A stretch of DNA of 43,797 nucleotides from Lachnospiraceae bacterium (GCA_029052995.1 JAIDHZ010000345.1:1-43797); one strand, 5' to 3'. Shown: positions 1 to 28,147, counted from the stretch's first letter. The notes: generated by a model not told the origin, from the sequence alone. Numbers and translations are program-made.

Positions 1-114
1 CATATAATATAAGAGTGTAACAAAGGTTACACGTTAATAATGCTCTAGGTTGTACGTCTCTCAATATATGAGAATGACCGAATCCTAGGGCTTTTTTAAT
101 TATAGGAGGTACAT

Positions 115-804
115 ATGAAAACGGCAATCCTTGTTGACGGAGGCTTCTACCGAAGACGCGCCCAAAAAGTATTTGGTGATATCAGTGCGCAGGACAGAGC
201 CATCGAATTAGCAAATTACTGCAAAAGACACCTAAATTCACATGGCGAGAACAATAACGAATTATATCGTATATTCTATTATGACTGTCCTCCAACGGCC
301 AAACGAATATTTCATCCTTTTCTGCAAAAGCAAGTGGACTTATCCAAATCTGATTTATACGCATGGATGAACCAGTTCCTTGACGAACTTAAAAAGAAAC
401 GGAAATTTGCCATACGCTTAGGCAAACTTGCTGAAGAACAGGCACACTATACAATTCGTCCACAAATTGTGAAAAAACTCTGCAATGGGAAACTTGCCTT
501 TTCAGACTTAACAGAGGCTGACTTCTATATCGAAATAGATCAAAAAGGAGTTGATATGAAAATCGGTCTCGATATTGCATCGCTGGCCTATAAACAGCAA
601 GTAGAGCAAATCATTCTCATATCCGGCGATAGTGACTTTGTATCTGCTGCCAAACTCGCCCGGCGTGAGGGAATTGATTTTATTTTAGATCCTTTAGGTG
701 CACCAATAAAACCTGACTTATTTGAACACATAGACGGTTTGCGCACCTGTGACCGCGCATACACCCAAAACAACTCGACAATAACACAGTTACCAAATGA
801 GTAA
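115..804 (+). CDS. NYN (LabA/DUF88-like, PIN-fold) domain protein, putative RNase
   Basis: AGGAGG lies 6 nt before the ATG. The N-terminus MKTAILVDGGF carries the acidic beta-1 motif. ILISGDSDFVSAAKLARREG is the typical LabA/NYN C-terminal motif. Confidence 0.7.
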   Translation: MKTAILVDGGFYRRRAQKVFGDISAQDRAIELANYCKRHLNSHGENNNELYRIFYYDCPPTAKRIFHPFLQKQVDLSKSDLYAWMNQFLDELKKKRKFAIRLGKLAEEQAHYTIRPQIVKKLCNGKLAFSDLTEADFYIEIDQKGVDMKIGLDIASLAYKQQVEQIILISGDSDFVSAAKLARREGIDFILDPLGAPIKPDLFEHIDGLRTCDRAYTQNNSTITQLPNE

Positions 805-11425: not shown

Positions 11426-12328
11426 TTAACTATTCTCTAATATCCTTTTTTGCAAATCCGGGTCAAATACCCCCTTCCGTATCATCTCAATCTCATATCT
11501 GTATGGCGGGTAGGACTTCTTCGTATTTTCCGGATCCTTTACATAGGGCGTTTCCAAGATTTTCGGGACATCCATAAAATCTTTATGGTTAATGATATAA
11601 GACAGTGCATCAAAACCAATTTTCCCAAATCCGATATTTTCATGCCTGTCCTTTCCTACCCCCGGCTCATTTTTGCTGTCATTAATATGGAATACTGCTA
11701 TCTGTTCTTTTCCAATCACTCTGTCAAAACAGTGGATTACCTCGTCAAAATCATGAATAATATCATAGCCTGCATCGCTGACATGGCAGGTGTCAAAGCA
11801 GACACGCAGCTTGTCATTATAGACAACTCCATCATAAATCATAGCAAGCTCCTCAAAACTTCTTCCAATCTCACTGCCCTTACCTGCCATAGTTTCAAGC
11901 GCAATACATACCTCTGTATCCTTTGTCAGTACAGAATTAATCCCCTTTACAATCTGGGCAACACCCTTTTCCACGCCTTCTCCTACATGGGAGCCGGGGT
12001 GCAGCACCATTATTTTAGAACCCATTGCTTTTGTCCGCTCCAATTCCTTTTCCAAAAACTCCACCGCAATTTCAAAGGTTTCCGTCTTTACTGTATTGGC
12101 AAGATTTATGATATAAGGAGCATGTACCACAAATTCCTCAATTCCATTCTCCCTCATCAAATCCCATGCCTCCGATATGTGAAGTTCACTGATTTTCTTC
12201 CGCTTTGTATTCTGGGGTGCGCCGGTATAAAGCATAAAGGTATTAGCCTTATAGCTTAATGCCTCCTTTACGGAGCCTAACATCATTTCCTTTCCACTCA
12301 TTCCAACGTGACTTCCTATTTTTAACAT
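11426..12328 (-). CDS. nfo: Endonuclease IV (deoxyribonuclease IV, AP endonuclease family 2)
   Basis: Metal-ligand motifs [28 protein letters not shown] and HINDS are present. 300 aa. Confidence 0.9.
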
Positions 12329-12411
12329 AGCTGCCTCCTGTATTTTTTATTATTTATATGTCACCAATTTTCAAAGAAAATTGATGACCTGCTTGCGCAT
12401 CAGCGCAATTC

Positions 12412-12438
12412 ATTATATCATAAACTTTGCTTATTCAA
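12412..12438 (-). promoter_or_regulatory. Proximal promoter module upstream of nfo (extended -10)
   Basis: The minus strand reads TTGAAT (12438-12433), a 15-nt spacer, then TGATATAAT (12420-12412). It is one of three copies of a conserved roughly 46-nt module (see findings). Confidence 0.45.
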
Positions 12439-12444
12439 TAAAGC

Positions 12445-12480
12445 ACACAAATTCACCCTTGCAAGCAAGTGAATTTGTGT
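12445..12480. repeat. 12-bp perfect inverted repeat between the two nfo promoter modules
   Basis: ACACAAATTCAC (12445-12456) pairs with GTGAATTTGTGT (12469-12480). The 12-nt loop CCTTGCAAGCAA is itself palindromic (CTTGCAAG). Confidence 0.7.
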
Positions 12481-12482
12481 AC

Positions 12483-12509
12483 ATTATATCACAAGCATAG
12501 CTTGTTCAA
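12483..12509 (-). promoter_or_regulatory. Distal promoter module upstream of nfo (extended -10)
   Basis: The minus strand reads TTGAAC (12509-12504), a 15-nt spacer containing the palindrome ACAAGC-ATA-GCTTGT, then TGATATAAT. The 24 nt at 12481-12504 are identical to 32639-32662. Confidence 0.45.
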
Positions 12510-12546
12510 AAACAGGCGTGCAAATCTTTTCAGAGAATTGCACGCC
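12506..12546 (-). terminator. Rho-independent terminator of xth
   Basis: A 9-bp stem, GGCGTGCAA / TTGCACGCC (12515-12546), lies 6 nt after the stop codon. It is followed on the minus strand by TGTTTTTG. Confidence 0.7.
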
Positions 12547-12551
12547 ATCTA

Positions 12552-13307
12552 TTACTCTTCCATAAGAAGCTCCACCGGACAATGGTCAGAGCCCATTACA
12601 TCCGTCAATATACCTGCATCAGTAAGCTTATCTGTCAAACTCTCCGATACAAGAAAATAATCAATACGCCATCCGGCATTCTTCTCTCTCGCCTTAAAGC
12701 GGTAAGACCACCAGGAATACACACCCTCTTTATCCGGATAAAAATGACGGTAAGTATCCACAAATCCATTCTCTAACAGAACAGAAAATTTCTCCCTCTC
12801 CTCATCAGTAAATCCTGCATTTTTCCGATTGGTTTTCGGATTTTTCAGGTCAATCTCTTTATGTGCCACATTCATATCACCACAGACAATTACCGGCTTA
12901 CTCTCCTCTAATCCTTTTAAATACGCAAGAAATGCATCCTCCCATTCCATTCGGTAGGAAAGCCTTGCCAGCTCGTTTTGTGAATTTGGGGTGTAAACCG
13001 TAACCATATAGAAATTCTCAAATTCCAAAGTTATGACACGCCCCTCCTTATCATGCTCCTCTATTCCCATTCCCTTTGTCACGGAAACCGGTTCCTTTTT
13101 GGTAAAGACAGCGGTACCCGAATAGCCCTTTTTCTCCGCATAATTCCAATACTGATGATAGCCCGGCAAATCCAGCTCAAGCTGCCCCTCCTGCATTTTT
13201 GATTCCTGAATACAGAAAATATCTGCATCCGCCTCTTTAAAAAAATCCATAAATCCTTTGCCCACACAGGCACGTATTCCATTTACATTCCACGAAATTA
13301 ACTTCAT
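12552..13307 (-). CDS. xth: Exodeoxyribonuclease III (AP endonuclease family 1)
   Basis: Contains [24 protein letters not shown] and GSDHCPV. The ORF track start (13328) overlaps deoC. The ATG at 13307 lies 2 nt after the deoC stop, with GAGGAG upstream. Confidence 0.9.
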
Positions 13308-13308
13308 A

Positions 13309-14016
13309 TTATTTCTCCTCTGACACAATCTCTACTGTCGCAGAAGTCCCCAGTCTGTCTGCTCCTGCCTGAATCATTGCCCTTGCTGTTGTCAAGTCAC
13401 GAATCCCACCGGATGCCTTTACCCGCACACGCTTACAGGTTTTACCTGTTTCTCTTTCTATAGCCATAGTTTTTGCATCCACGGTTTTTCTCATTAACGC
13501 CACATCCTCCACTGTGGCACCACCGGTACTAAACCCGGTTGACGTTTTAACAAAATCTGCTCCCGCCTCACATGCCAGTTCACAGGCTTTAATTTTTTCT
13601 TCCTCTGTCAAAAGGCAGGCTTCTATAATGACCTTTAAAATTACTTCCCTGCCCATGGTATTATGGACACATACATCCTGTACTTCTTCAATATCCTTTT
13701 TTACGGTATCCCAGTCTCCTTCCTTTACCGCTCCCACATTTATTACCATATCAACCTCAGTGGCACCATCTTCAATGGCAGTCAGTGCCTCTAACTTTTT
13801 TGCCATGCTGCTCATAGCACCCAGTGGAAATCCCACAACTGTACAAACCTCCACATCCGAATCTGCCAGCAGGCACGACACCTGTTTCGTCCTGACACTG
13901 TTGACACAAACAGAGGCAAAATGATACTGCATTGCCTCCATGCAAATCCGTTCCACATCCCCTTCAGTTGCATCTGCTTTTAATATGGTATGGTCAAAAT
14001 ATTTATTAAACTCCAT
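13309..14016 (-). CDS. deoC: Deoxyribose-phosphate aldolase
   Basis: Contains [20 protein letters not shown] (Schiff-base Lys) and KASGGIRD. Confidence 0.9.
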
Positions 14017-14145
14017 GTCTTAATTCTCCCTTTTATTCTTAATAAGAGCAAGTATAACCCTCGCAGCATTCGCCAAATGATGCTTCAAAGCGTTCGGCTC
14101 ATTGCTCGCAGAAATTAATTGCATGCTTAAACTGTTTATTTTATA

Positions 14146-14823
14146 TTATGTGAGTCCAAGAGCTTCTTTTGCCAGTTTGTCAGCCATCTCATTATAAGTA
14201 TCCCCGGTATGGGCTGCCACCTTGCAAAATCTAATCTCAATCTCCTGCCGCTTTGCTTCCACAAACTTCTGATACTCTTTTGTTCCTGCCTTGTTCGCTT
14301 TCCAAATTCCCTCTGCCCATTTTTCTATACCCTCGTAATCATAATAAATCGTAATTTTCTCATAGCCGTGCTCCACTGCCCAGGAAATTGCCTGCTCACT
14401 GCCTAATATCTCTCCAGCGACATTTCGCATACTAACATAATCCTGCCTGTTATCACTTCCATTTAGTGTAACCACTTCCTGCTCAAATACCAGTACACAT
14501 CCATAAGCATATCTTCTCTGGCTATGGTCATAGCTTCCGTCAACATATGCAATTAAATGCCTCCCCGTACTGACAGCCTGATTTTGATTTCCTTCCTCTG
14601 AAACCTTTGGATAATTCCCTTTTTCATACCCTGCCTTGTCATTGTCCGGATGATTTCCTACATCCGTACTATGGCTTGCAAGAAACTCCTCTGCCTCTGC
14701 AATTGCATTAAACCCCTTATAAACTGCTCCCGGGAAATGTTCCACCTGTGCCCTGCAATCCTCCCATGTCAGGTAAATCCCGGGCATTTTTCCTTTAACT
14801 ACCACATAATATTTCTTCGCCAT
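14146..14823 (-). CDS. Ribonuclease HI with N-terminal hybrid-binding (viroplasmin-like) domain
   Basis: The N-terminus KKYYVVVKGKMPGIYLTWEDCRAQVEHFPGAVYKGF is RNase H1 N-terminal-domain-like. The C-terminal RNase H core has IAYVDGSY, GEILGSEQA, IYYDYEG and NEMADKLAK acidic residues. Confidence 0.8.
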   Translation of the reverse strand: MAKKYYVVVKGKMPGIYLTWEDCRAQVEHFPGAVYKGFNAIAEAEEFLASHSTDVGNHPDNDKAGYEKGNYPKVSEEGNQNQAVSTGRHLIAYVDGSYDHSQRRYAYGCVLVFEQEVVTLNGSDNRQDYVSMRNVAGEILGSEQAISWAVEHGYEKITIYYDYEGIEKWAEGIWKANKAGTKEYQKFVEAKRQEIEIRFCKVAAHTGDTYNEMADKLAKEALGLT

Positions 14824-14885: not shown

Positions 14886-15227
14886 TCAGTGCTTTGCCCT
14901 GACTGCCTCCCACTCGTGAAACCTTTGTTCATACTGTTCATTTAACCATTCTATCATGGCAGTTTTACCTTCCTCGTCAAATGGGAACTCTGCCCTTGTC
15001 TTTTGTTCTTCCGGAGTCTTTTCAAAACAAAAGGGTTCAGGCCAGATAATAATTTCAAATACTGCCTCACCCTTTTGATCTGCTGGTTTCAATGCCACAT
15101 CCTCCATGGGATTTCTCGCAATCCGAAACCGCATCCCCAAATGGCTGCCCAGATAGGGCTGCGCATGCTCATACCACGAAATGCCGTAGGAATCCTTATT
15201 CTCTATCCTCACAATCTTTCTCTCCAT
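14886..15227 (-). CDS. Hypothetical 113-aa cytoplasmic protein
   Basis: An ORF with GAAAGGGA upstream. I recognise no motif in it. Confidence 0.5.
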   Translation of the reverse strand: MERKIVRIENKDSYGISWYEHAQPYLGSHLGMRFRIARNPMEDVALKPADQKGEAVFEIIIWPEPFCFEKTPEEQKTRAEFPFDEEGKTAMIEWLNEQYEQRFHEWEAVRAKH

Positions 15228-15356: not shown

Positions 15357-16535
15357 TCACTCTAAATTAATATGATAAAGTTCCAGCTCCTGCTTCACCC
15401 GGGGACCCAGTTCCGGATTTAATTTAAGAATTTCCCCTATATCCTTTAAACCATTCATCCTTAATTGTTGATTATACGTAATCTGTTCTCTCAGTTTTTG
15501 CCTGCGCACATTCAGTGAATGCTTCACCTCCACCATTTCACGATTATCCATTAACGCCAGAGATTGTTTAGCCCAAATATCCGGATCCTTTACCCCATAG
15601 GAAAATAACAGCTTTGAAAGTGCAGCCTCACTTTCCCTCAGATCACCTGCCCTGCGCTGATACTTACGCACCTCATCAACCATAATCAAATACTGGTCAT
15701 AGAGATACTCCAATTCCCGCAAACTCTTTATATTATATTTCCCATATAAATATTCGAGTGTTGATGTATTGTTAATATATTTTATTTTAACCTTATTCAT
15801 CAGATTAATAGCCCGGTTTTCTTTGGTCTCGCTTAGCTTATACTCATAGGAAAGCCTTTTATAGGACACAATTACCAGTGCGGCAAATGCCACAACAACC
15901 AATAAAATTAAAAGAATTGGGAAAATCAGATTATATCCTGATAACATACTGGCAATCGCAAGAGTCACTACAGCAAGTACAGCCACCACACCAAATCCAA
16001 TCACAAAGGTTCTAAGCCTTGCCTGTCTGCCTTCAATAGAATTCTGCATGTATTCTAACGAATTTTTCTCTGCCTCAAGATGCTTCATGTCCCGTTTAAT
16101 CTTTAGGTCCATATCCTCTAACTCTTTAAGGCGCCCCATAATCTGTGACAAATCCTTTTCCATGCCCTGAATCATCCGGAAATTCTCATCACTGATTCTA
16201 TCATCTGAATGCAAAAATGTGGACGTCTCATTCTCTAAAAGAGCGATTTTTTTAGCAATTTCCGCAATCTCCCTTCGGGCATCTGCCGGCAATTCCTCAA
16301 TCGTCTGAATATCCGTAAAATAAGAGGTGACCATATCATACTCCACCTTTAAATCCTCCATCTGATAAGTGGCGTCCACAATCTGATCACACTTAAAAAC
16401 AACATCATCTTCAGACCGCCCTTCCTCTTCCTTCTCCCGACCCGTCAAAAAATTATCTATGCTCTCATATTCAAATGTCTCCTCGGTAATCTCTGCTTTT
16501 GTAAAAATATCCTTTACCACATTCAACAATCCCAT
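15357..16535 (-). CDS. Coiled-coil membrane protein (acidic N-terminal coiled coil, TM hairpin, helical C-terminal domain); unknown function
   Basis: AAGGAG RBS. Two adjacent hydrophobic helices (FVIGFGVVAVLAVVTLAIASML and LIFPILLILLVVVAFAALVIV) sit mid-protein. It is the last gene of the four-gene operon. Confidence 0.7.
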   Translation of the reverse strand: MGLLNVVKDIFTKAEITEETFEYESIDNFLTGREKEEEGRSEDDVVFKCDQIVDATYQMEDLKVEYDMVTSYFTDIQTIEELPADARREIAEIAKKIALLENETSTFLHSDDRISDENFRMIQGMEKDLSQIMGRLKELEDMDLKIKRDMKHLEAEKNSLEYMQNSIEGRQARLRTFVIGFGVVAVLAVVTLAIASMLSGYNLIFPILLILLVVVAFAALVIVSYKRLSYEYKLSETKENRAINLMNKVKIKYINNTSTLEYLYGKYNIKSLRELEYLYDQYLIMVDEVRKYQRRAGDLRESEAALSKLLFSYGVKDPDIWAKQSLALMDNREMVEVKHSLNVRRQKLREQITYNQQLRMNGLKDIGEILKLNPELGPRVKQELELYHINLE

Positions 16536-16554
16536 ATTGCTGCTCCTTCTTTAT

Positions 16555-17388
16555 CTACACTGTCTGCTCTCTGAATTCTGCCTTTAACTGTTCAAGCACA
16601 TTGTCAATCCTCTTATTAAAATCAGTCAGATTATTTTTCTGGTAATGGAAAATCGCCTTCTCCATTCTGTGATAAGCCGGCGACCCCAGCACATCTGACT
16701 CAGCATCTTCAATCGCAGTATACAACTGGTCAAACATTTCTGTCACACCATAAAATTTTGCCAGAACCTCCACGTCCTCTCGGGGTTTCAGCATTGCCAT
16801 TAACAGCAGATATTCATAAATGGAGCGTTTATCACCAGTCAGCTCATAAGCTTTCAAATAAGAATTAAGTGCCTGGTCAATTTCAAAATTATGCGCCAGT
16901 GCTACTGCCCTGTTATGATAAATGGAAGCAAGCAATTTTTCATTATTTAAATCCGGATTCTGGTCTAAAATTTCTTCATAAATAGAAGCCGCCTTTAAAT
17001 ACTTCCGATATCTTAAAAATCCATCCGCCTGCATCTTACGAAACTGCGGTGCACTCAATACTTTCATCCGTTCCATCCGTAATATAAATTCCCTAATCTC
17101 GGGAATCGTATAGTACTCCTTAAAAGTAAGTATTGCTGCCAAAAGATCCGTTAAATCATTAGGCTCCTTCTGCTTTTTCTCCTGCAATAGCTTTGCAAGC
17201 TCCGGAAGACCAAGTTCCATCTCAATCCATTGAAATAATTTTGTTGAAATGTATTCCTCTGAGATAAGTGCAATATTGTTATAAATATAATAACAAAGCT
17301 CCTCATAAGAAAATACCTCAATCTTTGTATTTGGAAAAATATATGAAATTGTTGCAGGTTCAGTCTCACATAGTATTACGCGTCCCAT
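16555..17388 (-). CDS. TPR-like repeat protein; unknown function
   Basis: The ATG overlaps the last 13 nt of the upstream gene, with AAGGAG 5 nt upstream. TPR-like helices include AASIYEEILDQNPDLNNEKLLASIYHNRAVALAHNFEIDQALNSYLKAYELTGD. Confidence 0.7.
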   Translation of the reverse strand: MGRVILCETEPATISYIFPNTKIEVFSYEELCYYIYNNIALISEEYISTKLFQWIEMELGLPELAKLLQEKKQKEPNDLTDLLAAILTFKEYYTIPEIREFILRMERMKVLSAPQFRKMQADGFLRYRKYLKAASIYEEILDQNPDLNNEKLLASIYHNRAVALAHNFEIDQALNSYLKAYELTGDKRSIYEYLLLMAMLKPREDVEVLAKFYGVTEMFDQLYTAIEDAESDVLGSPAYHRMEKAIFHYQKNNLTDFNKRIDNVLEQLKAEFREQTV

Positions 17389-18635
17389 ACAATCTCCTTA
17401 CGATAGATTTTATTAGTGGTCGGATAAATCTTTCCAAATCCCAAATCCTTAATCACAATTGCTCCCGTCTTCTCTCCGGAAAGCTCGACCTCCAACGACA
17501 ATTTTGTTGTTTTTGGCGGACGTTTCGGCAATCCGTGTATTTCTATAATTTCTTTCTGAGTCTCCTTTGTCACCTTATCGCGGTACACCATTTCAATCCG
17601 GTTGGTATCATCTAAAAACAATGTAACCTTTCCCTTCATGTTATACCACTCTTTACCGCCTATGGCAATTGGATAAAATTTCTTCCTTCCTTCTGTATCT
17701 CCTATATACAGACCAATATCAAAAGGGATACTTCCTTCTGTGTAGAGAACACAATCTCTGTCTGCCTCATAGGCGCCAAATCTGGCATAGTAGCAGGCAC
17801 CTTTTGTATATATATTCTGACCCATAAACACTCTACGTCCTTCACAAAGTATTTTCGCAGACTCCTCAATCCACTTATCATTAAATCCCGGACCTGTTAA
17901 ATATACTGTAGATATGTAGGTTTCCCGCATCTTAACTTTTGCAATCTCTGCTAAACGATGGTCTAAGGCTTCTATATCCTGAAACAACATGGTATATGGT
18001 AAATCGTTTTTCATATCCTGACGTAAAAGATAATAAAGCTTTGTATTCCCCTGAAATTTTTTGTCAATACGGTAATACTCCATTCCTTCAGCGCCGTACT
18101 CAAACATGGCCACACTATTATTACGAAGCCGTTCATCCTGATGCATAACATACTGAAAAAAAGCATTTTCGTGGCTCATGATATAAAATGTTTCATCCGA
18201 TAATCCCAATTGCGTTTTAAGCTGGTTTAAAACCTTATACACTTTGGCATTATATTGTTCTAATGCCACCGTCAGCCTGTTGAGAATGTACTCTTCTGAA
18301 CGTTCTAAAAAGGCTTCTATATGCAACTTCAACAAGGTCAGCAACAGCTCCTCATAACTATAATCGATTCCGCCTGCCTTAATATGTTCATCCAAATCTA
18401 TATTTCCCACCACATCCTCTACCATAACACCCTTTGTCTGAAAACGAACCTGGCTTACCTGATTGCCTACATACCACTTATTTTCCTCTTCCAAAAAAAA
18501 CATTACATTGGGAAACTGATAGGTCTCTGTATTATTCTGTTGACAAACGGACTCCGGTTCCTGCTTATCCTCTCTGTAGTAGCTAATCTGAATATTCTTT
18601 CTGCACAGGTCAAGTCCCAAATAGATTTGCTTCAT
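17376..18635 (-). CDS. Hsp70/actin-fold (ASKHA) protein with SBD-beta-like C-terminus, no lid, degenerate ATP-binding loops
   Basis: The sequence aligns collinearly to DnaK by eye. IYLGLDLCRKN matches IIGIDLGTTNS. YIMSHENAFFQY matches RIINEPTAAALAY. VAMFEYGAEGMEY matches IAVYDLGGGTFDI. VYLTGPGFN...YTKGACYYA matches VILVGGQTR...EAVAIGAA. IHGLPKRPPKTTKLSLEVELSGEKTGAIVIKD matches [30 protein letters not shown]. Confidence 0.7.
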   Translation of the reverse strand: MKQIYLGLDLCRKNIQISYYREDKQEPESVCQQNNTETYQFPNVMFFLEEENKWYVGNQVSQVRFQTKGVMVEDVVGNIDLDEHIKAGGIDYSYEELLLTLLKLHIEAFLERSEEYILNRLTVALEQYNAKVYKVLNQLKTQLGLSDETFYIMSHENAFFQYVMHQDERLRNNSVAMFEYGAEGMEYYRIDKKFQGNTKLYYLLRQDMKNDLPYTMLFQDIEALDHRLAEIAKVKMRETYISTVYLTGPGFNDKWIEESAKILCEGRRVFMGQNIYTKGACYYARFGAYEADRDCVLYTEGSIPFDIGLYIGDTEGRKKFYPIAIGGKEWYNMKGKVTLFLDDTNRIEMVYRDKVTKETQKEIIEIHGLPKRPPKTTKLSLEVELSGEKTGAIVIKDLGFGKIYPTTNKIYRKEIVWDA

Positions 18636-18655
18636 CTTAATTCCCTCTTTACTGT

Positions 18656-21600
18656 TTACTCTATCAGTTCCAAATTCTCTTCCACTACTGCAGAAAGCTT
18701 TAGATAACGGTCAATCTTATCAATCATAATCTGATTTTCTCCAATCTCCTGATTTAGTAGCATGGAATTTAACATTTCAAACCGGTTCTCATAGTCTTCT
18801 GTCTCTCCCTTTGCCTTCATGCCCTCACTCTCATACACACATGTATGGCTGGCATATTCTTCCGGTATTTCGTAAAGAAGATTCTCCCCATGGAACAGCA
18901 CAAACTCCTTCATATAGTAGCCCGGTAAAACCTCTATCATTCTTGCGGTTTTGTTACACTCCGGCTTATCCACACCGGACTGAATTGCATATTTAAACGA
19001 AATCTGCCTGCCTGCTTTATCCCTTGTTACCATATAGGTCATCATAAACAAATCCTTTGGAAGCTTAACATATTTCTTAAAGCTTCTGAAAAACGGCAGC
19101 ATGATACCACGCCCTATAAAATTTTCGGTCTTTGCCTTAACCCATAAAATCTCAACCTGCTCTAATCTCACCTTACGGCTAAAATACAACAGCATTGCAG
19201 CATAAAGCATGTCATCCGCCAAGTCCTCCGTTAGTATTTGCCTGTATAATGTCTCAAAAAATGATGCCGGAATCTCTTTTTCTTCCACCAGATAAGCAAA
19301 TGAAGCACGCTTGAAAAATGCTTTCATTACCATTCCTCTGCGTTTTTTCTCCGAATAAGCGGCAAAGACTTTATAAACCTCCTCATTCCACTGCTCTGTA
19401 TAAAGTGTTTCACAAATTATATTTTCTTCCAAAGCTTCAAGCCGTGTTAGCTTATTTGCAGCACGTTTCCAAAGCTTTAGCATATCCTTTACACCACTTT
19501 GGTAATAATCCACCAGATATGCTAAAATCTCCAGTGTCTCCTGTCCTTTTTTGTAAATATATACCGCAACAGAAATCAGACATTCCTTTTCCTTATACTC
19601 ATCATATTCCTTTAGAACTTCCACTAATCTTATTAAATGTTCTACTGAGACGCCCTGATAACCAAACCGTTCAATTGCCATAAATGCTTTATCATAAAAG
19701 TTACATTCCAATAAATAATTAATAAATTCCACTGATTGCTTAGGCAAAACATATGCCAAATCTACCCGTTCCAAATAACTTTTTAAAATATCCACATCAC
19801 GATGCTCATGGTAATACCTTACAATTGCATAAATAGCCTGTTGCTTCGTCCCTGTACTAATCTCCGGAAATGCCAAAAGATCCCTTGCTATATTAACCTC
19901 CCTTGCAGACGTGGCTTCAAATGCTTTCATTGCATCATATTGATACAAGGCATATCTAAAATCATCTGCACCATGCTGCCCCAAAAGGTCAATATACCCA
20001 GACTCGTCCACCAGTTTTTGCAGTTTGTATGGAATGGTACTGATAAATCTGTTTTTATCCCTGTCCAACAGAGAAATAACCGCAGATTCCATAATCATGT
20101 CCACATAAGCCACATGATTGACAACCGGATATATTGTTTCTTTTTCCAGCTCATTATGAGACACAATTACTGCTATAATATTATCATTTGCCACAGTAAG
20201 TTTTCTCTTAAAAATTACATTAGTGAGGCTTCCGGCAAAACTTGGCCTGACCGCCTGCGGTCTTAAGAACTCACTGTACAAAACACTTAAATCATCACTC
20301 ATGGCACCCTTTATAATCTGATCCTCCATAAAGGCTTCCATGTTTGGCAGATATTCTTCGTACTGCCCCAGATACTGCCGCTTATTTGTAATAACGTTGG
20401 CATATAAATACGCATACTCTGCGTCCGTTAACGAACTCTTATAATTAAAGTACCGAAGTACAGAATCCGGAATCAATTCATAAATATGCTTATCCATGCT
20501 GCGGAGAAAATTTTCCTGAATCCCCACAATCTTAAAACCACAACGGATTCCCTCCAAATAAAAACCATGATACCGATATTCCAGCCTGCCGCCTTTAATC
20601 AGCATTGCACACATAATTCGAATAATCTCCGGTTGTTTCGTATTGTCATAAATGATACTAAGCAGCTTAAACACCTTCGGCGAAAATTCTTTTTCCCTTG
20701 CCGCAAGCTGTAAAAATCCTTCTACTGCTTCCTTGCTTAAATATTCATTTTTTAAGCCAAAACGCACTGCCACAATTTCGGTTTCAGAAAGCTTCCTCAA
20801 CAATAACGGATCTTCATTGAGCAAATCACAAAGCTCCAAAGCAAGCACAGGTGAATGCATACCACCCATAACCAGTTTCCTAATTTGAGAATACATCCAC
20901 TGTTTATCCCTCTGATATTGTTCATCCAAATAAATCAACAGCCAGAAGTAAAATAATTTGTCCTTTTGTGTTACTAATGATTTCTCAATTTCTTTACAGG
21001 CAGCAACAATCTGCTCTCTCTCTTTAGACAATAACGCCTTTAAATACAGATAGTAGCAATGTTCCTTTTCTCCCCTCATTGCTTTATCCATATCTGCTTC
21101 CATTCTGCGAATCTCTTCCCGTACTATATCCTCTTTCCCCACAAGGATATTCATATGCAAAAGACCTAATTTGTACACGCCTGCATCCGGTTCAAAGTAA
21201 ATCAACTGATTGAGCGAATCTCTTATTTTATCAGCAAAGTCCTGCAAAGAAAGCTTCCCCATTCTATAATTCAAATAGTTGTGTATAAGTGCTGCCATCT
21301 CCTTTTTCTTCAGCCTTCTGTCATGATTCTTATGCACTAATACTCTGGGTTCTTCTTCAGGCTTTTTAATTGAAATATCCACCACTATTTTCTGATATGT
21401 ATTTTCTAATATAATATGTCCTGTTACAGACTCATTTTCATTTAAGAATTCCGGATCAATGCTATAATCTAATTTTCCAACATCACCTTCAAAATCAGTA
21501 CTACATATAACGGTCTGATGCACGCTGATAAATTTGGCATCACTCCTTACTGCCATACAGCAATATCCCCATGTGTTCTTCCTCAAAATCAATTCGTGTT

Positions 21601-22228
21601 CTTCCCGCATTTTAGGAAATGAAAACTGAAAACGGCTGTGTTCCACCTGCAGATTAAGAGCTCTTTTCTTATGAATATAGACTAAAAATTCCTCCAAAGC
21701 CTGATTTTTATTCAATGAATCATTAAGACTTCTATACGCCTGAAGATAATCCTGATTTCCGGTCAGCAAAGTATGCGGAAACTCCTCAGAATAAAAAATC
21801 CCAAGTGCCTTGTCCCAATCTTCCTCTGCAACTGCGCTGAATTTCATCAAATCCTCTAAAGCCACTCCACCGGCATCAATAAACGGAGCCACCACTTCTA
21901 TATTATAGGGAATCACCTTCTCCAATCCATTACCAATCACATGAATTGCACCCTCATAAACATTTCCGCGTTTGCGGCTTGTAGAATCAAAAGTAAACCG
22001 AATTACACCCTTTCTTCCAATAAGGCTGTGTTCTTCAAGGCACAATAAATATGCATCGTCATATACCATCATTTTCATCGGAATATCATTATCCGAACTT
22101 ACTGTAATCTCTCCTGTATATACGCTGCCTGCTTCAATTTTTAATTGTAAATAACTCTTTGAAATTGATACCGCAGGATACTCAATATAAAAGTCTCCTT
22201 TGGCATACTGTTCAACTTTACTTTTCAT
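18656..22228 (-). CDS. 1190-aa protein: two N-terminal beta-sandwich-like modules followed by about 900 aa of helical repeats; unknown function
   Basis: A long uninterrupted ORF and the first gene of the operon. It has no signal peptide or TM, and I found no Walker or other catalytic motif by eye. Confidence 0.75.
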   Translation of the reverse strand: MKSKVEQYAKGDFYIEYPAVSISKSYLQLKIEAGSVYTGEITVSSDNDIPMKMMVYDDAYLLCLEEHSLIGRKGVIRFTFDSTSRKRGNVYEGAIHVIGNGLEKVIPYNIEVVAPFIDAGGVALEDLMKFSAVAEEDWDKALGIFYSEEFPHTLLTGNQDYLQAYRSLNDSLNKNQALEEFLVYIHKKRALNLQVEHSRFQFSFPKMREEHELILRKNTWGYCCMAVRSDAKFISVHQTVICSTDFEGDVGKLDYSIDPEFLNENESVTGHIILENTYQKIVVDISIKKPEEEPRVLVHKNHDRRLKKKEMAALIHNYLNYRMGKLSLQDFADKIRDSLNQLIYFEPDAGVYKLGLLHMNILVGKEDIVREEIRRMEADMDKAMRGEKEHCYYLYLKALLSKEREQIVAACKEIEKSLVTQKDKLFYFWLLIYLDEQYQRDKQWMYSQIRKLVMGGMHSPVLALELCDLLNEDPLLLRKLSETEIVAVRFGLKNEYLSKEAVEGFLQLAAREKEFSPKVFKLLSIIYDNTKQPEIIRIMCAMLIKGGRLEYRYHGFYLEGIRCGFKIVGIQENFLRSMDKHIYELIPDSVLRYFNYKSSLTDAEYAYLYANVITNKRQYLGQYEEYLPNMEAFMEDQIIKGAMSDDLSVLYSEFLRPQAVRPSFAGSLTNVIFKRKLTVANDNIIAVIVSHNELEKETIYPVVNHVAYVDMIMESAVISLLDRDKNRFISTIPYKLQKLVDESGYIDLLGQHGADDFRYALYQYDAMKAFEATSAREVNIARDLLAFPEISTGTKQQAIYAIVRYYHEHRDVDILKSYLERVDLAYVLPKQSVEFINYLLECNFYDKAFMAIERFGYQGVSVEHLIRLVEVLKEYDEYKEKECLISVAVYIYKKGQETLEILAYLVDYYQSGVKDMLKLWKRAANKLTRLEALEENIICETLYTEQWNEEVYKVFAAYSEKKRRGMVMKAFFKRASFAYLVEEKEIPASFFETLYRQILTEDLADDMLYAAMLLYFSRKVRLEQVEILWVKAKTENFIGRGIMLPFFRSFKKYVKLPKDLFMMTYMVTRDKAGRQISFKYAIQSGVDKPECNKTARMIEVLPGYYMKEFVLFHGENLLYEIPEEYASHTCVYESEGMKAKGETEDYENRFEMLNSMLLNQEIGENQIMIDKIDRYLKLSAVVEENLELIE

Positions 22229-22261
22229 AAGTGCTCCATATCAAATAATATCTGATTTCTC

Positions 22262-22291
22262 TTGATGTTTTATCCCATGAAATGATATAAT
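22262..22291 (+). promoter_or_regulatory. Candidate promoter of the aminotransferase gene
   Basis: TTGATG (22262-67), an 18-nt spacer, then TGATATAAT ending at 22291. Confidence 0.45.
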
Positions 22292-22323
22292 CTTGCCATG
22301 TAATAAAAAATACAGATATTTTG

Positions 22324-22352
22324 ATTATATCAAATTTTTCATAATAATAAAA
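22324..22352 (-). promoter_or_regulatory. Candidate extended -10 promoter of the four-gene operon
   Basis: The minus strand reads TGATATAAT (22332-24) within the palindrome TTTGAT-ATA-ATCAAA. The -35 (TTTTAT) is weak. Confidence 0.35.
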
Positions 22353-22394
22353 GCTTAAGTTGTAACCTTATATTACAACGGAAAGAGGTATATT

Positions 22395-25403: not shown

Positions 25404-26807
25404 TCACTCAATAAGACTGGCAATTGAATCTAAATCATTATATTTAAGTGTTGTATCTTTTCCGTCATTTGTAAAATTTACTGTATAACTCTTTGACAGA
25501 TAACCAGCCATACTAAATGTAATTATATGACTTCCTGTAACTTTTGTAAAGGAAATCGGTACAATTCCTAAATATTCTCCATCTAAATATACACTTGCAC
25601 CAACAGGCGCAGACACCGTTACCTTATTCTTTGTTTTGTCCTGCTCCGAACTCTCGCTGCCTTTTTCGGTCGTTGCTGTTGTACCTTCTGTTGTTTTTTT
25701 ACTTTCTGTCGCCGTTGTCGTCCCTGTAGTGCTTCCCGTTGTTTTATTTTGACTGCTTCCTGAGGCAGATTGTGTGCTTTCGCTTTTACTGCCCTGTTTA
25801 TTAAGAGTATATTCTTTAATTAAATACGCAAAATTTACATTAAAGGATGCACTGTATGAATCATACCCCTCTGCAGTAATATATATTTTATGCTTACCAT
25901 AAGCCATTTCAACCGCTCCCTCAGTATTGACATGTTTTCCATCGATATATACTGCTGCATCAGCCGGTGTCACCTTGAATAATATGGAGCCCATTTGCTT
26001 TGGTTCAATTGCGATATCTGCCAGAGAAAGTTCCGTTTCCTGATTCTTGATGACCTCCACCTTTTTTGTTCCCACGTCATCCCCTTTGGCAATCCGCAGG
26101 GTATATTCCCCCTCTCTTACTGTCAAGAGCATATTTTCTGTTACCGGAACAATAACATCATATCCAATTTCTACCATTCCTCCGAGGTAAGATGCATAAT
26201 CCTCCAGCTTCACGTATCCATGCCCCAGTTCTACATACATGGAACAAATAACATTATCATAAATCCAAACCGATATCTGATCTTCAGAACAAATCTCGTC
26301 CACTTCAATTTCATTATTATCTGAAAATGCACTAACATTCTTACTCATTTCATAGGTGATTCCATCAATCCGAACAGTCTTTTTTATGTTATCTACAATC
26401 GCACCGGATACACCCTCTAACTTTGCCACCTTTTCGCTATCGCTTAATTTTAAAGAAAGAAGCTTATCCCTGTTATCATCATAAATGATATCCACAATAC
26501 TGCCGAGAGGCACCTGATTCATTGATAAAACATCGCCATATTTATCCACCACATCCGCACCACCATTATAACGAAGCGTAATCTCTGAATCATAACCTAC
26601 TGATTTTAATGTAATCTTTTCATTTATATCATCCAGGTTACTGACAATTGCAAACATTGATACCTCATCTACCGGGTCCGGTTCATCATCATAGGTTGGT
26701 GCTGTGATTTGGTTCCCGCAACCTGCAAGACAAAAAAGCATACCCATAAGAAACAGTATGCTGATTTTCGTTTTCTTTATACAATTGGGTGTAATTTTTG
26801 TGTACAT
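25404..26807 (-). CDS. Lipoprotein with two PEGA domains and a Ser/Thr-rich linker
   Basis: It has a signal peptide with the lipobox LAGC. PEGA-like segments are ADAAVYIDGKHV...YGKHKIYITAEGYDSY and VGASVYLDGEYLGIVP...GSHIITFSMAGYLS. The linker reads SQNKTTGSTTGTTTATESKKTTEGTTATTE. Confidence 0.7.
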   Translation of the reverse strand: MYTKITPNCIKKTKISILFLMGMLFCLAGCGNQITAPTYDDEPDPVDEVSMFAIVSNLDDINEKITLKSVGYDSEITLRYNGGADVVDKYGDVLSMNQVPLGSIVDIIYDDNRDKLLSLKLSDSEKVAKLEGVSGAIVDNIKKTVRIDGITYEMSKNVSAFSDNNEIEVDEICSEDQISVWIYDNVICSMYVELGHGYVKLEDYASYLGGMVEIGYDVIVPVTENMLLTVREGEYTLRIAKGDDVGTKKVEVIKNQETELSLADIAIEPKQMGSILFKVTPADAAVYIDGKHVNTEGAVEMAYGKHKIYITAEGYDSYSASFNVNFAYLIKEYTLNKQGSKSESTQSASGSSQNKTTGSTTGTTTATESKKTTEGTTATTEKGSESSEQDKTKNKVTVSAPVGASVYLDGEYLGIVPISFTKVTGSHIITFSMAGYLSKSYTVNFTNDGKDTTLKYNDLDSIASLIE

Positions 26808-26947: not shown

Positions 26948-28147
26948 CTACATATCCAGCAAATGAAAAGCAGAAAATTTGTTCAACATATCCCTTTTTT
27001 CCTTTTCCTGTAATATGACCGTTTCCAGTTTTTCTACATATTTAGGGGATAAAAATGCTTTATTTGTGTTGTAATACCCATTTGCTATTTTCCAAAATTT
27101 TTCAGGATAGGAAAAAAGAATATAAATATATCTGTAATCCTCCCTTTCAAGAGATATCTTTTTATTATATTCTTTTAAAATTGCTTCCAGTAAAGTTAAA
27201 TCAAAATTATTTTTTTCCATTACCTTACGTGAAAACTGATAAAGATCATTTAACTGATTCCCTTTAGAAAATCTTTCAAAGTGAACAATTGCTTCACCGT
27301 CTTCACATAACAACACATTATGCTGGTTATAATTGCCGTGACAGATTCCATAATGTTTATCATAAACCTGTTTTGTAATGTTTTTGTCTTCTAACATTTT
27401 TACACAATCAATTCCCTGCCCGTAGTAATCCCAAAACACCTTCAAAAAGAGATTTTCAAATGCATTTTTTTGCTTTACAGTATTTATAAACCTATAAATC
27501 TTTTTCAATTCTTTATTATGCCTTATAAATATTTCATTAATATCTTTATAAACCATATCCGGCATCTTTGTCTCATTTTTCTTCTGCGCTCCCGGCTCTT
27601 TTGTACCATCTTTTGCACAGGGCCCCTTTAAAATTTCATCTAATACCGTCTCTCTAATATCATAGACATGTGCAATCCTTTCTAACTCCTCGCCATCTGC
27701 AAATGCCTTTCTGATTTCTGAAAATTTTTTTTCTTCCTTTTCATGTTCATACTGTTCCCATGCGGTCTGAAATCTGGAAGCTGCCGCTTTCCCGCAAATA
27801 TGCAGATTGGTTAGTGCCCGCACACTTCTTTTCACATCAGATATGTTTTTCATGCCGCATTCTTCCCCATCAAAATGCTGTTTTAACACAAAAGGCTGTC
27901 TGTATTTATCACAGGTCAGCAATTGCCCATCCCTGTTTGGAATAATTGCGTCTACCTTAGAAAAACCATCCTCAAGTAAAAGTTTTTTCAATACATGCTC
28001 CTGCTCTAAACGGGTAATATTTCCTCTAAAGGGTTCTAAAATCCGATATCCATCAGACGTTGTCAAAATAGTTGCACCGCGTCCCTTTCTTGTGCTTACA
28101 ATATCCATATCATACTGTTCATATACCTCTGCAAGCTTTTCTGCCAT
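26948..28147 (-). CDS. CotS-family spore-coat-like protein kinase/phosphotransferase
   Basis: The N-terminus YDMDIVSTRKGRGATILTTSDGYRILEP is typical of the CotS/YtaA family. The kinase-like core contains ICHGNYNQHNVLL. GAAGGAGG RBS. Confidence 0.65.
   Translation of the reverse strand: MAEKLAEVYEQYDMDIVSTRKGRGATILTTSDGYRILEPFRGNITRLEQEHVLKKLLLEDGFSKVDAIIPNRDGQLLTCDKYRQPFVLKQHFDGEECGMKNISDVKRSVRALTNLHICGKAAASRFQTAWEQYEHEKEEKKFSEIRKAFADGEELERIAHVYDIRETVLDEILKGPCAKDGTKEPGAQKKNETKMPDMVYKDINEIFIRHNKELKKIYRFINTVKQKNAFENLFLKVFWDYYGQGIDCVKMLEDKNITKQVYDKHYGICHGNYNQHNVLLCEDGEAIVHFERFSKGNQLNDLYQFSRKVMEKNNFDLTLLEAILKEYNKKISLEREDYRYIYILFSYPEKFWKIANGYYNTNKAFLSPKYVEKLETVILQEKEKRDMLNKFSAFHLLDM

Follow-up and report, generated by a model that had tools for sequence, protein, structure and literature searches.

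The window analysed here is a stretch of 43,797 nucleotides (nt) from a Lachnospiraceae bacterium (GCA_029052995.1, JAIDHZ010000345.1:1-43797), and the subject of this report is an operon of four minus-strand genes within it, between positions 15,357 and 22,228. In gene order these encode a giant protein of 1190 amino acids (aa), a 419-aa homologue of Hsp70, a 277-aa protein resembling tetratricopeptide repeat (TPR) proteins, and a 392-aa protein with a transmembrane (TM) hairpin. The original prediction, generated by a model from the sequence alone, had described four packed open reading frames (ORFs), and the ORF listing and junction sequences agreed with it exactly in coordinates, gaps, overlap and Shine-Dalgarno sites. 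The first two genes are separated by a 20-nt gap, with AGAGGGA 7 nt 5' of the 419-aa ATG. Genes 2 and 3 overlap by 13 nt, the 277-aa ATG preceding the TAA of gene 2 and AAGGAG lying 5 nt 5' of that ATG. The last two genes are separated by a 19-nt gap, with GAAGGAG 5' of the 392-aa ATG. As GGAG lies 5' of the 1190-aa ATG, a purine-rich Shine-Dalgarno sequence is thus present at all four starts. Only the 392-aa protein has hydrophobic segments, and the other three have neither a signal peptide nor a TM segment.

The labels DUF5716 and DUF5717, which the prediction had suggested without being able to confirm them, proved correct for the 419-aa and 1190-aa proteins, respectively. The families returned by Pfam were DUF5717_N, DUF5717 C-terminal and DUF5716_C, so that none of the proteins mapped to a family of known function, and comparison of the four proteins with NCBIfam, PADLOC and PHROGs gave nothing above curated cut-offs. 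Full-text literature searches found no relevant paper on DUF5716 or DUF5717 proteins, and no mention of the 277-aa and 392-aa partners, the operon, or the gene fusions and the pyridoxal 5'-phosphate (PLP) enzyme neighbour described below.

Relatives were collected by scanning one genome per species with a single peptide pattern taken from a narrower DUF5716 alignment. A relative was found in 488 genomes, which is a lower bound, the pattern being retained by only part of the family. The best 80 of the 488 loci and ten loci fetched separately were then analysed, with gene presence scored by tblastn. The giant gene was found within 6.5 kb upstream of gene 2 at 80 of 81 assessable loci, the 277-aa gene lay directly downstream of gene 2 at every assessable locus (85/85), and the 392-aa gene was next in line at 65 of 76. 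This order is held across species at 23-78% protein identity; the relative at 23% identity keeps the four-gene layout with products of 1200, 422, 278 and 403 aa, and the same layout is present in Agathobacter, Lachnotalea glycerini and Anaerosporobacter. The junction between genes 2 and 3 is overlapping or nearly contiguous in relatives too. Per-locus identities co-vary among the four proteins (Spearman 0.86-0.93), and with that of a divergently encoded aminotransferase (0.77-0.87). All 80 kept loci are of Lachnospiraceae type, and the named carriers are all Lachnospiraceae. Cultured carriers include Lachnotalea glycerini, Anaerolentibacter hominis and Lachnospiraceae bacterium AC2029, to which strains of Anaerosporobacter and Agathobacter may possibly be added from genus-level labels. 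Co-conservation of the genes in order, across dozens of species, was therefore confirmed, and the chance juxtaposition that the prediction had kept as an alternative was not what was found. The operon is a real gene cluster of undescribed function that is inherited across the Lachnospiraceae.

The 419-aa protein matched DUF5716_C (PF18980) over residues 121-417 (E 4.4e-90, 302.1 bits against a cut-off of 34.7). When its AlphaFold2 (AF2) model (pLDDT 80.8, pTM 0.78) was compared with the PDB using Foldseek, the top 50 matches were all of Hsp70 type, with E-values down to 1.1e-16; they included DnaK, lidless DnaK, BiP, Hsc70, Hsp110 and Ssz1, and the alignments spanned both the nucleotide-binding domain (NBD) and the beta part of the substrate-binding domain (SBD-beta). 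An exhaustive search placed the DUF5716 family at 918 clusters at 50% identity, and for a profile built from 83 diverse members DnaK was the only PDB family matched (E 6.8e-7). That alignment covers the SBD signature, pairing GLPxRPxKTTRL...IxIxDxGFGE of the family with GIPPAPRG.PQIEVTFDIDANG...KDKGTGK of DnaK. An hhalign comparison of the profile with a single DnaK was weak (E 0.0018, probability 14.6%) and serves for column mapping only, not as evidence of homology. Numbering and motif spacing refer to what we take to be the E. coli DnaK sequence. The model, the Foldseek matches and the family profile together bore out the earlier description of a lidless protein collinear with the Hsp70 NBD and SBD-beta.

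Compared with DnaK, the sole large departure in motif spacing lies between the phosphate-2 and adenosine motifs, which are 68 residues apart in the 419-aa protein and 145 apart in DnaK, a deletion of ~77 residues at the place of subdomain IIB, which in DnaK forms a wall of the nucleotide cleft and the exchange-factor site. In the AF2 model one strand and one helix pair occupy the former IIB region. The protein stops 3 residues past the last SBD-beta strand, and it is lidless because no helix follows SBD-beta (none was modelled beyond residue 293). Among the 83 diverse family members, the columns equivalent to DnaK T11/T12, K70, E171 and G196-T199 (the D194-GGG-T199 loop) are variable, and what is left of the phosphate and catalytic positions is G7, D9 and an acidic residue at 179. 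The residues conserved at 90-100% are G7, D9, G248, F251, W255, C264, R268, G272, N274 and G279/A280 in the NBD, and G327, W330, R372, D397, G399, F400 and G401 in the SBD, the last four forming the stretch D397-G-F-G401. The closest structural states were those of DnaK with a docked SBD (7kru/7krv, TMq 0.53; 4b9q, 0.50), compared with 0.41-0.44 for undocked ones. No J-domain (DnaJ) protein or GrpE was found in the four operon proteins or the ten flanking ORFs.

The 419-aa protein is thus a true, heavily reduced Hsp70 homologue in which the canonical DnaK-type features looked for, namely the catalytic and phosphate-binding residues, subdomain IIB and the lid, are missing or variable. Of the chaperone-like machine that had been predicted, the Hsp70 fold stands, but a normal chaperone cycle is unlikely because the canonical catalytic residues and subdomain IIB are lost. 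The conservation pattern suggests a non-cycling or very slow Hsp70 that may keep a functional peptide-binding cleft. Pfam scans of unusually long DUF5716 members gave no informative added domains, and a 691-aa member (P0245) considered as a fusion was rejected, its extra length being an acidic low-complexity tail.

The 277-aa protein begins with a nearly invariant motif, M-x-[KR]-[VIL]-I-[LVI]-C in the family alignment, and is most conserved in its first ~60 residues (F18, T21, E29, E30, C32, Y34, N37, N38, W54). Its earlier description as a TPR protein holds weakly. TPR_2 matches occur in 15 of 18 family members (best E 2.5e-5), with the window protein itself at 20.9 bits, under the cut-off of 27, and the family profile gave weak TPR matches in the PDB to NASP (E 6e-4) and BtubC (E 8e-3), and also to Tom70 and Tah1, with E-values up to 3e-2. 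In six distinct 50%-identity clusters the protein is fused to DUF5716 in proteins of ~700 aa, consisting of DUF5716, a short acidic linker and a complete 277-aa module (E 6e-21 to 2e-33). A motif of the [RK]-L-I-[LF]-C type is kept at the fusion junction, right after the SBD and acidic linker. The fusion in at least six lineages is the strongest evidence that the 419-aa and 277-aa proteins work as one unit, and the 13-nt overlap of their genes points the same way.

The giant protein matched DUF5717_N (E 2.7e-246, 820 bits) and the DUF5717 C-terminal family (E 3.4e-55, 187.8 bits); both matches, to PF18984 and PF18983, are full-length and above the gathering score of 25 bits. Its AF2 model (pLDDT 84, pTM 0.55) agreed with the two predicted N-terminal beta-rich modules and the long helical-repeat body, and added two small embedded beta-domains (residues 674-729 and 1063-1132) that the prediction had not described. 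In Foldseek searches the N-terminal part resembled tandem ASH/PapD/BACON-type immunoglobulin (Ig)-like sandwiches, and the helical part resembled the TPR scaffolds IFT-A, Ctr9, Ski3, Naa15 and OGT; a fold search of BFVD returned only generic BACON/Ig and TPR/Sel1 matches. Model and matches support a scaffold-like giant, and the matches are to be read as generic because their E-values (~1e-6) came with low TM-scores. Neither single-sequence nor profile searches of the PDB found a match for the giant, and no enzyme fold or motif emerged in it. Its length is steady at 1179-1200 aa, also among relatives of no more than 24-40% identity. The giant of Lachnospiraceae bacterium AC2029 (L075, 5716-9699) has 1327 aa, and its DUF5717_N match is split in two, as though ~140 residues had been inserted.

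In the 392-aa protein both the acidic N-terminal part and the TM hairpin that had been predicted are present by net charge and hydropathy. The hydrophobic segments, at residues ~176-198 and 203-226, are separated by a 4-residue loop, and both termini are predicted to be cytoplasmic. In the family alignment a motif next to the membrane (NKVKIKYINNTSTLxYLY) is conserved, as is the helical C-terminal domain with its motif DxREMVEVKHSLNVRRQKLREQ. No Pfam family exceeded its cut-off for this protein, DUF2207_C matching weakly in 9 of 14 family members, and its family profile found no relative in the PDB and none of known function. Matches to SLATT_1 (13 bits against a cut-off of 41) and Phage_holin_3_6 (13.6 against 28.4) do not recur among the 14 members. 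In PADLOC-DB 2.0 the only match of the 392-aa protein was LeoBC (E 4e-4, 17.5 bits), and the other three operon proteins had none. Single-sequence PDB searches with the operon proteins gave chance matches to histone H2B and PsbQ, or none. As to its predicted role of membrane anchor, the protein is present at most loci but is facultative. Neither the AC2029-like clade nor the fusion clade encodes it at the operon, and in AC2029 itself valS comes next.

The positions of these features, and of those in the region upstream of the operon, are listed in Table 1.

Table 1. Features of the four-gene operon, its upstream control region and the divergent gene. Residues refer to the protein named; motif positions in the 419-aa protein are paired with those in DnaK.
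Feature	Length or residues	Nucleotides	Strand	Basis	DnaK position
Gene 1, giant scaffold	1190 aa	18656-22228	minus	ORF listing, Pfam	
1190-aa: Ig-like beta-sandwich 1	20-124	21857-22171	minus	AF2 model	
1190-aa: conserved helical linker between sandwiches	127-187		minus	AF2 model	
1190-aa: Ig-like beta-sandwich 2	193-288	21365-21652	minus	AF2 model	
1190-aa: TPR-like alpha-solenoid, ~750 residues	302-1050	19079-21325	minus	AF2 model	
1190-aa: small beta-domain interrupting solenoid	674-729		minus	AF2 model	
1190-aa: C-terminal beta-domain	1063-1132	18833-19042	minus	AF2 model	
1190-aa: conserved low-confidence segment, then terminal helices	1137-1151		minus	AF2 model	
Gene 2, reduced Hsp70 homologue	419 aa	17376-18635	minus	ORF listing, Pfam	
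419-aa: NBD without subdomain IIB	1-290	17766-18635	minus	AF2 model	
419-aa: SBD-beta	296-417	17385-17750	minus	AF2 model	
419-aa: phosphate-1 motif	7				6
419-aa: connect-1 motif	153				169
419-aa: phosphate-2 motif	177				193
419-aa: adenosine motif	245				338
419-aa: NBD end	272				366
419-aa: SBD start	302				393
419-aa: GxPxxP motif	368				461
419-aa: DxGxG motif	395				487
Gene 3, TPR-like partner	277 aa	16555-17388	minus	ORF listing	
277-aa: N-terminal motif	3-7	17368-17382	minus	family alignment	
277-aa: TPR-like repeats	~112-197	16798-17055	minus	TPR matches	
Gene 4, membrane anchor (putative)	392 aa	15357-16535	minus	ORF listing	
392-aa: acidic, probably coiled-coil N-terminal region, net charge -19	1-175		minus	charge computation	
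392-aa: two-TM hairpin	176-226	15858-16010	minus	hydropathy	
Divergent control region	166 bp	22229-22394		sequence	
Operon-sense extended -10, TGaTATAAT (predicted)		22332-22324	minus	consensus scan	
Aminotransferase promoter, TTGATG-18-TGnTATAAT (predicted)		22262-22291	plus	consensus scan	
CobD/HisC-family PLP-dependent enzyme	363 aa	22395-23486	plus	Pfam Aminotran_1_2, E 3.4e-50	

The original prediction had reported no enzyme-type catalytic motif in any of the four products. This holds for the giant, but the neighbourhood is not enzyme-free because a divergent, CobD/HisC-like PLP-dependent enzyme, which the prediction had overlooked, adjoins the operon. At 77 of 78 assessable loci a homologue of this enzyme is encoded on the opposite strand, 110-450 bp upstream of the giant gene; the remaining flanks vary. 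By sequence the 363-aa enzyme belongs to the CobD/HisC subfamily, falling below both equivalog cut-offs (TIGR01140 CobD, 252.6 bits against 290.55; TIGR01141 HisC, 218.4 against 276.55), and its top PDB match is Salmonella CobD (1lc5, E 6.9e-56). In an alignment of the intergenic region from the window and 29 close relatives with a giant protein at least 60% identical, the blocks conserved in at least 80% are AAATTTGnTATAAT, ATTATAnCA and AAACnTCAAGA. The promoters in this region are predicted to be SigA-type, and in the window and the 29 relatives there are two with a conserved extended -10, one for each direction. The predicted promoters of the two directions face each other, each inside the predicted 5' untranslated region of the other, with transcripts overlapping by ~20 nt, an arrangement that could cause transcriptional interference. 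That the operon and the CobD/HisC-like enzyme gene stay head to head may point to a connection with metabolism.

The genes around the operon are core genes. In other genomes the flanks include valS, gltX, purC-purF-purB, infC-rpmI-rplT, dnaB, RarA and DNA-repair genes, and in the window they encode RNase H, DeoC, exonuclease III, AP endonuclease and phosphoglucomutase. No plasmid record matched the operon proteins and no IMG/VR contig encoded a relative. Five matches labelled 'Bacteriophage sp.' are unverified faecal scaffolds. One of them, MT835486.1 (L091, 66.8 kb, 'UNVERIFIED: Bacteriophage sp.'), carries the four-gene operon with RarA/MgsA, a frameshifted valS and glycosyltransferases; it was rejected as a phage copy on account of its bacterial core genes, and is almost certainly a chromosomal contig in a virome data set. 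Core-gene flanks, the lack of plasmid or viral copies and the SigA-type promoters argue for a vertically inherited function, which would be a housekeeping one, and against a defence island or a sporulation regulon.

Our preferred explanation, held with a confidence just short of even, is that the operon encodes a vertically inherited, membrane-tethered scaffold complex built on a degenerate, non-cycling Hsp70 peptide clamp and its TPR partner. The complex would be cytoplasmic, constitutively expressed and specific to Lachnospiraceae. Its core would consist of the 1190-aa Ig-like/TPR scaffold, the reduced Hsp70 homologue and the TPR-like adaptor, and in most lineages the two-TM coiled-coil protein would tether it to the inner membrane face. 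The Hsp70-like protein would have given up its ATP-driven chaperone cycle, since it has lost the lid, the exchange-factor site in subdomain IIB, the catalytic Lys/Glu/Thr and the glycine-rich loop of phosphate-2. Instead, the strongly conserved, complete SBD-beta may act as a permanent peptide clamp, whose likeliest ligand would be the N-terminal [KR]-hydrophobic-I-hydrophobic-C strand of the 277-aa partner. The near-invariance of residues 3-7 in that partner, and the presence of a structure of Ssz1 with its pseudo-substrate (6sr6) among the Foldseek matches, are consistent with such a clamp. Other proteins could then dock at the membrane on the TPR and Ig-like modules. Two parts of this reading are firmer than the whole, namely that the operon proteins act together and that the operon is not a mobile defence system; a physical complex of all the operon proteins and the clamp mechanism are suggested by the domain content and the conservation described above.

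Several observations weigh against this explanation. A stoichiometric four-part complex is not universal, because the anchor gene is not adjacent to the operon at 11 of 76 loci and, in a Clostridium sp. CAG:590-like clade, insertions part the giant gene from the other three. At one locus of this clade (L017, 7923-10000) the insert holds an Hsp20 gene and a gene for a GGDEF membrane protein, and at another (L012, 1-9980) it encodes a 1856-aa BspA-type leucine-rich repeat surface protein, TetR and a YhcG nuclease. That an Hsp20 gene was inserted beside the Hsp70-like gene may be coincidence. The loss of ATPase activity is read from alignment columns, and with D9 and acidic residue 179 retained the protein may still bind nucleotide or hydrolyse it slowly. 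As for the 277-aa protein, its N-terminal motif may be no more than the opening beta-strand of the domain to which it belongs. The fold matches of the modelled giant are generic, the term housekeeping rests on synteny, and the sample, as the best 80 of 488 genomes found with one pattern, is biased toward motif-keeping relatives.

The functionally closest system is the ribosome-associated complex (RAC) of yeast, Ssz1-Zuo1, in which an atypical Hsp70 is a stable structural subunit, as is proposed for the operon. Ssz1 is non-hydrolysing, and its SBD-beta holds the N-terminal pseudo-substrate of Zuo1. Structures of Ssz1 type (6sr6 and 5mb9) were among the Foldseek matches of the 419-aa model, and in both systems the partner is mostly helical. 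The two differ in that Zuo1 is a J-domain protein, whereas the operon proteins contain no J domain; Ssz1 keeps subdomain IIB and binds ATP, whereas the 419-aa protein is without IIB; and RAC is ribosome-bound and eukaryotic, whereas the operon adds a membrane anchor and a giant scaffold of Ig and TPR modules. For the operon proteins the pseudo-substrate contact is a hypothesis. Canonical DnaK/Hsp70 with its TPR partners (Hop, CHIP, Tom70, Tah1) shares the Hsp70 ancestry and a dedicated TPR partner, and E. coli HscC-DjlC, a membrane-anchored Hsp70 partner system, resembles the operon in relying on an anchored component for recruitment to the membrane, as is proposed here. Unlike canonical Hsp70, the 419-aa protein has no EEVD tail, lid, subdomain IIB or catalytic triad, and no J protein or nucleotide exchange factor was found in the operon or flanks. 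We know of no covalent fusion of Hsp70 to a TPR partner in canonical systems, in contrast to the DUF5716 fusions. The 419-aa and 1190-aa proteins are clear members of Pfam DUF5716 and DUF5717, whose entries carry no function. We place the operon among the specialised, catalytically degenerate Hsp70 modules, a kind that is already known.

Some of those modules belong to conflict systems, and the operon could be imagined as an anti-phage or conflict system modelled on the GAP1-N2 GTPase systems or on CoCoNuT CnuD, in which the TPR/Ig giant senses, the Hsp70-like/TPR pair transmits or sets a threshold, and the two-TM protein is a pore-forming abortive-infection effector. Published systems pair degenerate Hsp70-like NBD/SBD proteins, helical repeats, beta-sandwich-TPR proteins and 2TM effectors (PMC11090510, PMC7159879). 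CnuD of type III CoCoNuTs has an Hsp70-like NBD/SBD with degenerate ATPase motifs and HEAT-like repeats (PMC11090510), and the operon shares with it a degenerate bacterial Hsp70-like NBD/SBD alongside long helical-repeat modules and coiled coils. The HSP70-themed GAP1-N2 systems of Firmicutes and Actinobacteria contain HSP70, GrpE, an FNIII-TPR or FNIII-DnaJ protein and SLATT effectors (PMC7159879), so that HSP70, a beta-sandwich-TPR protein and membrane-proximal 2TM components are common to both. The weak matches of the 392-aa protein to LeoBC and SLATT_1 given above, a further one to holin phrog_689 (E 7e-4) and a weak TPR-S match of the 277-aa protein point the same way, but all these matches are far under curated cut-offs, SLATT is not recurrent in the family, and the other three proteins were without a PADLOC match. 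What defines CnuD is linkage to genes for an McrB-like NxD GTPase, McrC-N (DUF2357) and HEPN in defence superoperons (PMC11090510), and GAP1-N2 systems are defined by a TRAFAC GTPase with zinc ribbons and a GAP1-N2 protein (PMC7159879); none of these GTPases, GAP1-N2, GrpE, McrB/McrC (DUF2357) or HEPN was found in the operon or its flanks. The operon is syntenic and chromosomal rather than island-borne, its distribution looks vertical rather than patchy, and it sits among core genes, beside a constant divergent neighbour with which its identities co-vary, with no plasmid or viral-contig copies found. Its protein lengths are near-invariant, unlike those of fast-evolving sensors, and no other component is lost as often as the putative effector. 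The likeness in parts to both classes is real, but their defining components are absent and the genomic behaviour differs, and we regard a conflict system as improbable.

A somewhat better case, though still an unlikely one, can be made for a genuine ATP-driven chaperone specialised for one client (the giant, the PLP enzyme or a membrane protein), with the TPR protein as co-chaperone and the anchor as docking site, in the manner of HscC-DjlC or Hsp70-Tom70. The Hsp70 ancestry, the intact SBD-beta and interdomain linker, and the kept G7/D9, acidic residue 179 and adenosine-motif glycines fit such a chaperone. TPR proteins are classic co-chaperones and receptors of Hsp70, with Tom70 and Tah1 among the profile matches, and one clade has the Hsp20 gene inserted in the operon. 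Against it, the family does not conserve the GGG loop or the equivalents of the catalytic Lys, Glu and Thr, the protein has neither subdomain IIB nor a lid, and no J-domain protein or exchange factor is encoded in the operon or the ten flanking ORFs. The strong conservation of polar or aromatic SBD residues (G327, W330) suggests one fixed ligand over promiscuous binding. We consider a sporulation or spore-envelope assembly factor of Clostridia very improbable: the host is of that class, a CotS-family-like gene lies ~4.7 kb away and coat morphogenesis typically uses large scaffolds and membrane anchors, but the conserved promoters are of the SigA extended -10 type and not SigE/K/F/G, no NCBIfam sporulation model matched any of the four proteins, and the operon is present in Agathobacter, which is regarded as a non-sporulating genus. 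The CotS-like gene is not conserved beside the operon, the flanks differing in relatives, and this link was dropped. Hardly any weight is left for unrelated neighbours brought together by chance or genome inertia, since order and spacing are held to 23% identity while the flanks change, and the overlap and repeated fusion of genes 2 and 3 already contradict it.

A module of ~2,300 codons kept from 78% to 23% identity with near-fixed protein lengths points to strong selection for an unnamed function. A wider proposal, which we hold with considerable doubt, is that the module is an unrecognised cell-biological machine of the Lachnospiraceae, combining an ATPase-dead Hsp70 clamp, TPR adaptors and an Ig/TPR giant at the membrane. 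If true, the machine would serve a family-specific process, such as protein targeting or the organisation of the envelope or division site, with expression coupled to that of a PLP enzyme. The Lachnospiraceae are among the most abundant bacteria of human and ruminant guts, and to our knowledge their cell biology is almost unstudied. In its domain logic, a beta-sandwich and TPR solenoid with Hsp70/TPR docking, the module is closer to eukaryotic tethering and docking assemblies than to any described bacterial system. The use of Hsp70 as a structural clamp has so far been best known from the eukaryotic RAC, and the operon would add a bacterial case in which an Hsp70 has given up ATP-driven chaperone work and become such a fixed clamp. 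The clamp reading predicts testable points, namely the clamped peptide, the binding partners and the site of the complex.

Downstream of the operon, at 14886-15227 (minus) and 129 nt from it, lies a 113-aa ORF with no family match and no terminator-like site in between. It was found by tblastn in most close relatives (giant at least ~62% identical) and in no distant ones, and may be a clade-specific fifth cistron. Further along, 11426-14823 (minus) is a stretch of genes for nucleic-acid repair and turnover, which encodes an AP endonuclease 2-type TIM-barrel protein, an exonuclease III-family protein, a DeoC-like aldolase and RNase H; the exonuclease III-family ORF overlaps the DeoC-like ORF by 20 nt, and the RNase H has an N-terminal Cauli_VI (RNase H1 N-terminal) domain. 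On the other side, the CotS-family-like ORF (26948-28147, minus) encodes a 399-aa spore-coat kinase homologue scoring 144 bits against a cut-off of 172.7; a TCAD9 assignment for it was rejected (25 bits against 40). The adjoining gene, at 25404-26807 (minus), encodes a 467-aa protein with a C-terminal PEGA domain, and neither is a conserved neighbour of the operon. No Rfam family reached threshold anywhere in the 43.8 kb. The GC skew is strongly negative across the window, from -0.07 to -0.33 per 2 kb, and nearly every long ORF lies on the minus strand, in keeping with a plus strand that serves as lagging-strand template in one arm of a Firmicutes chromosome.

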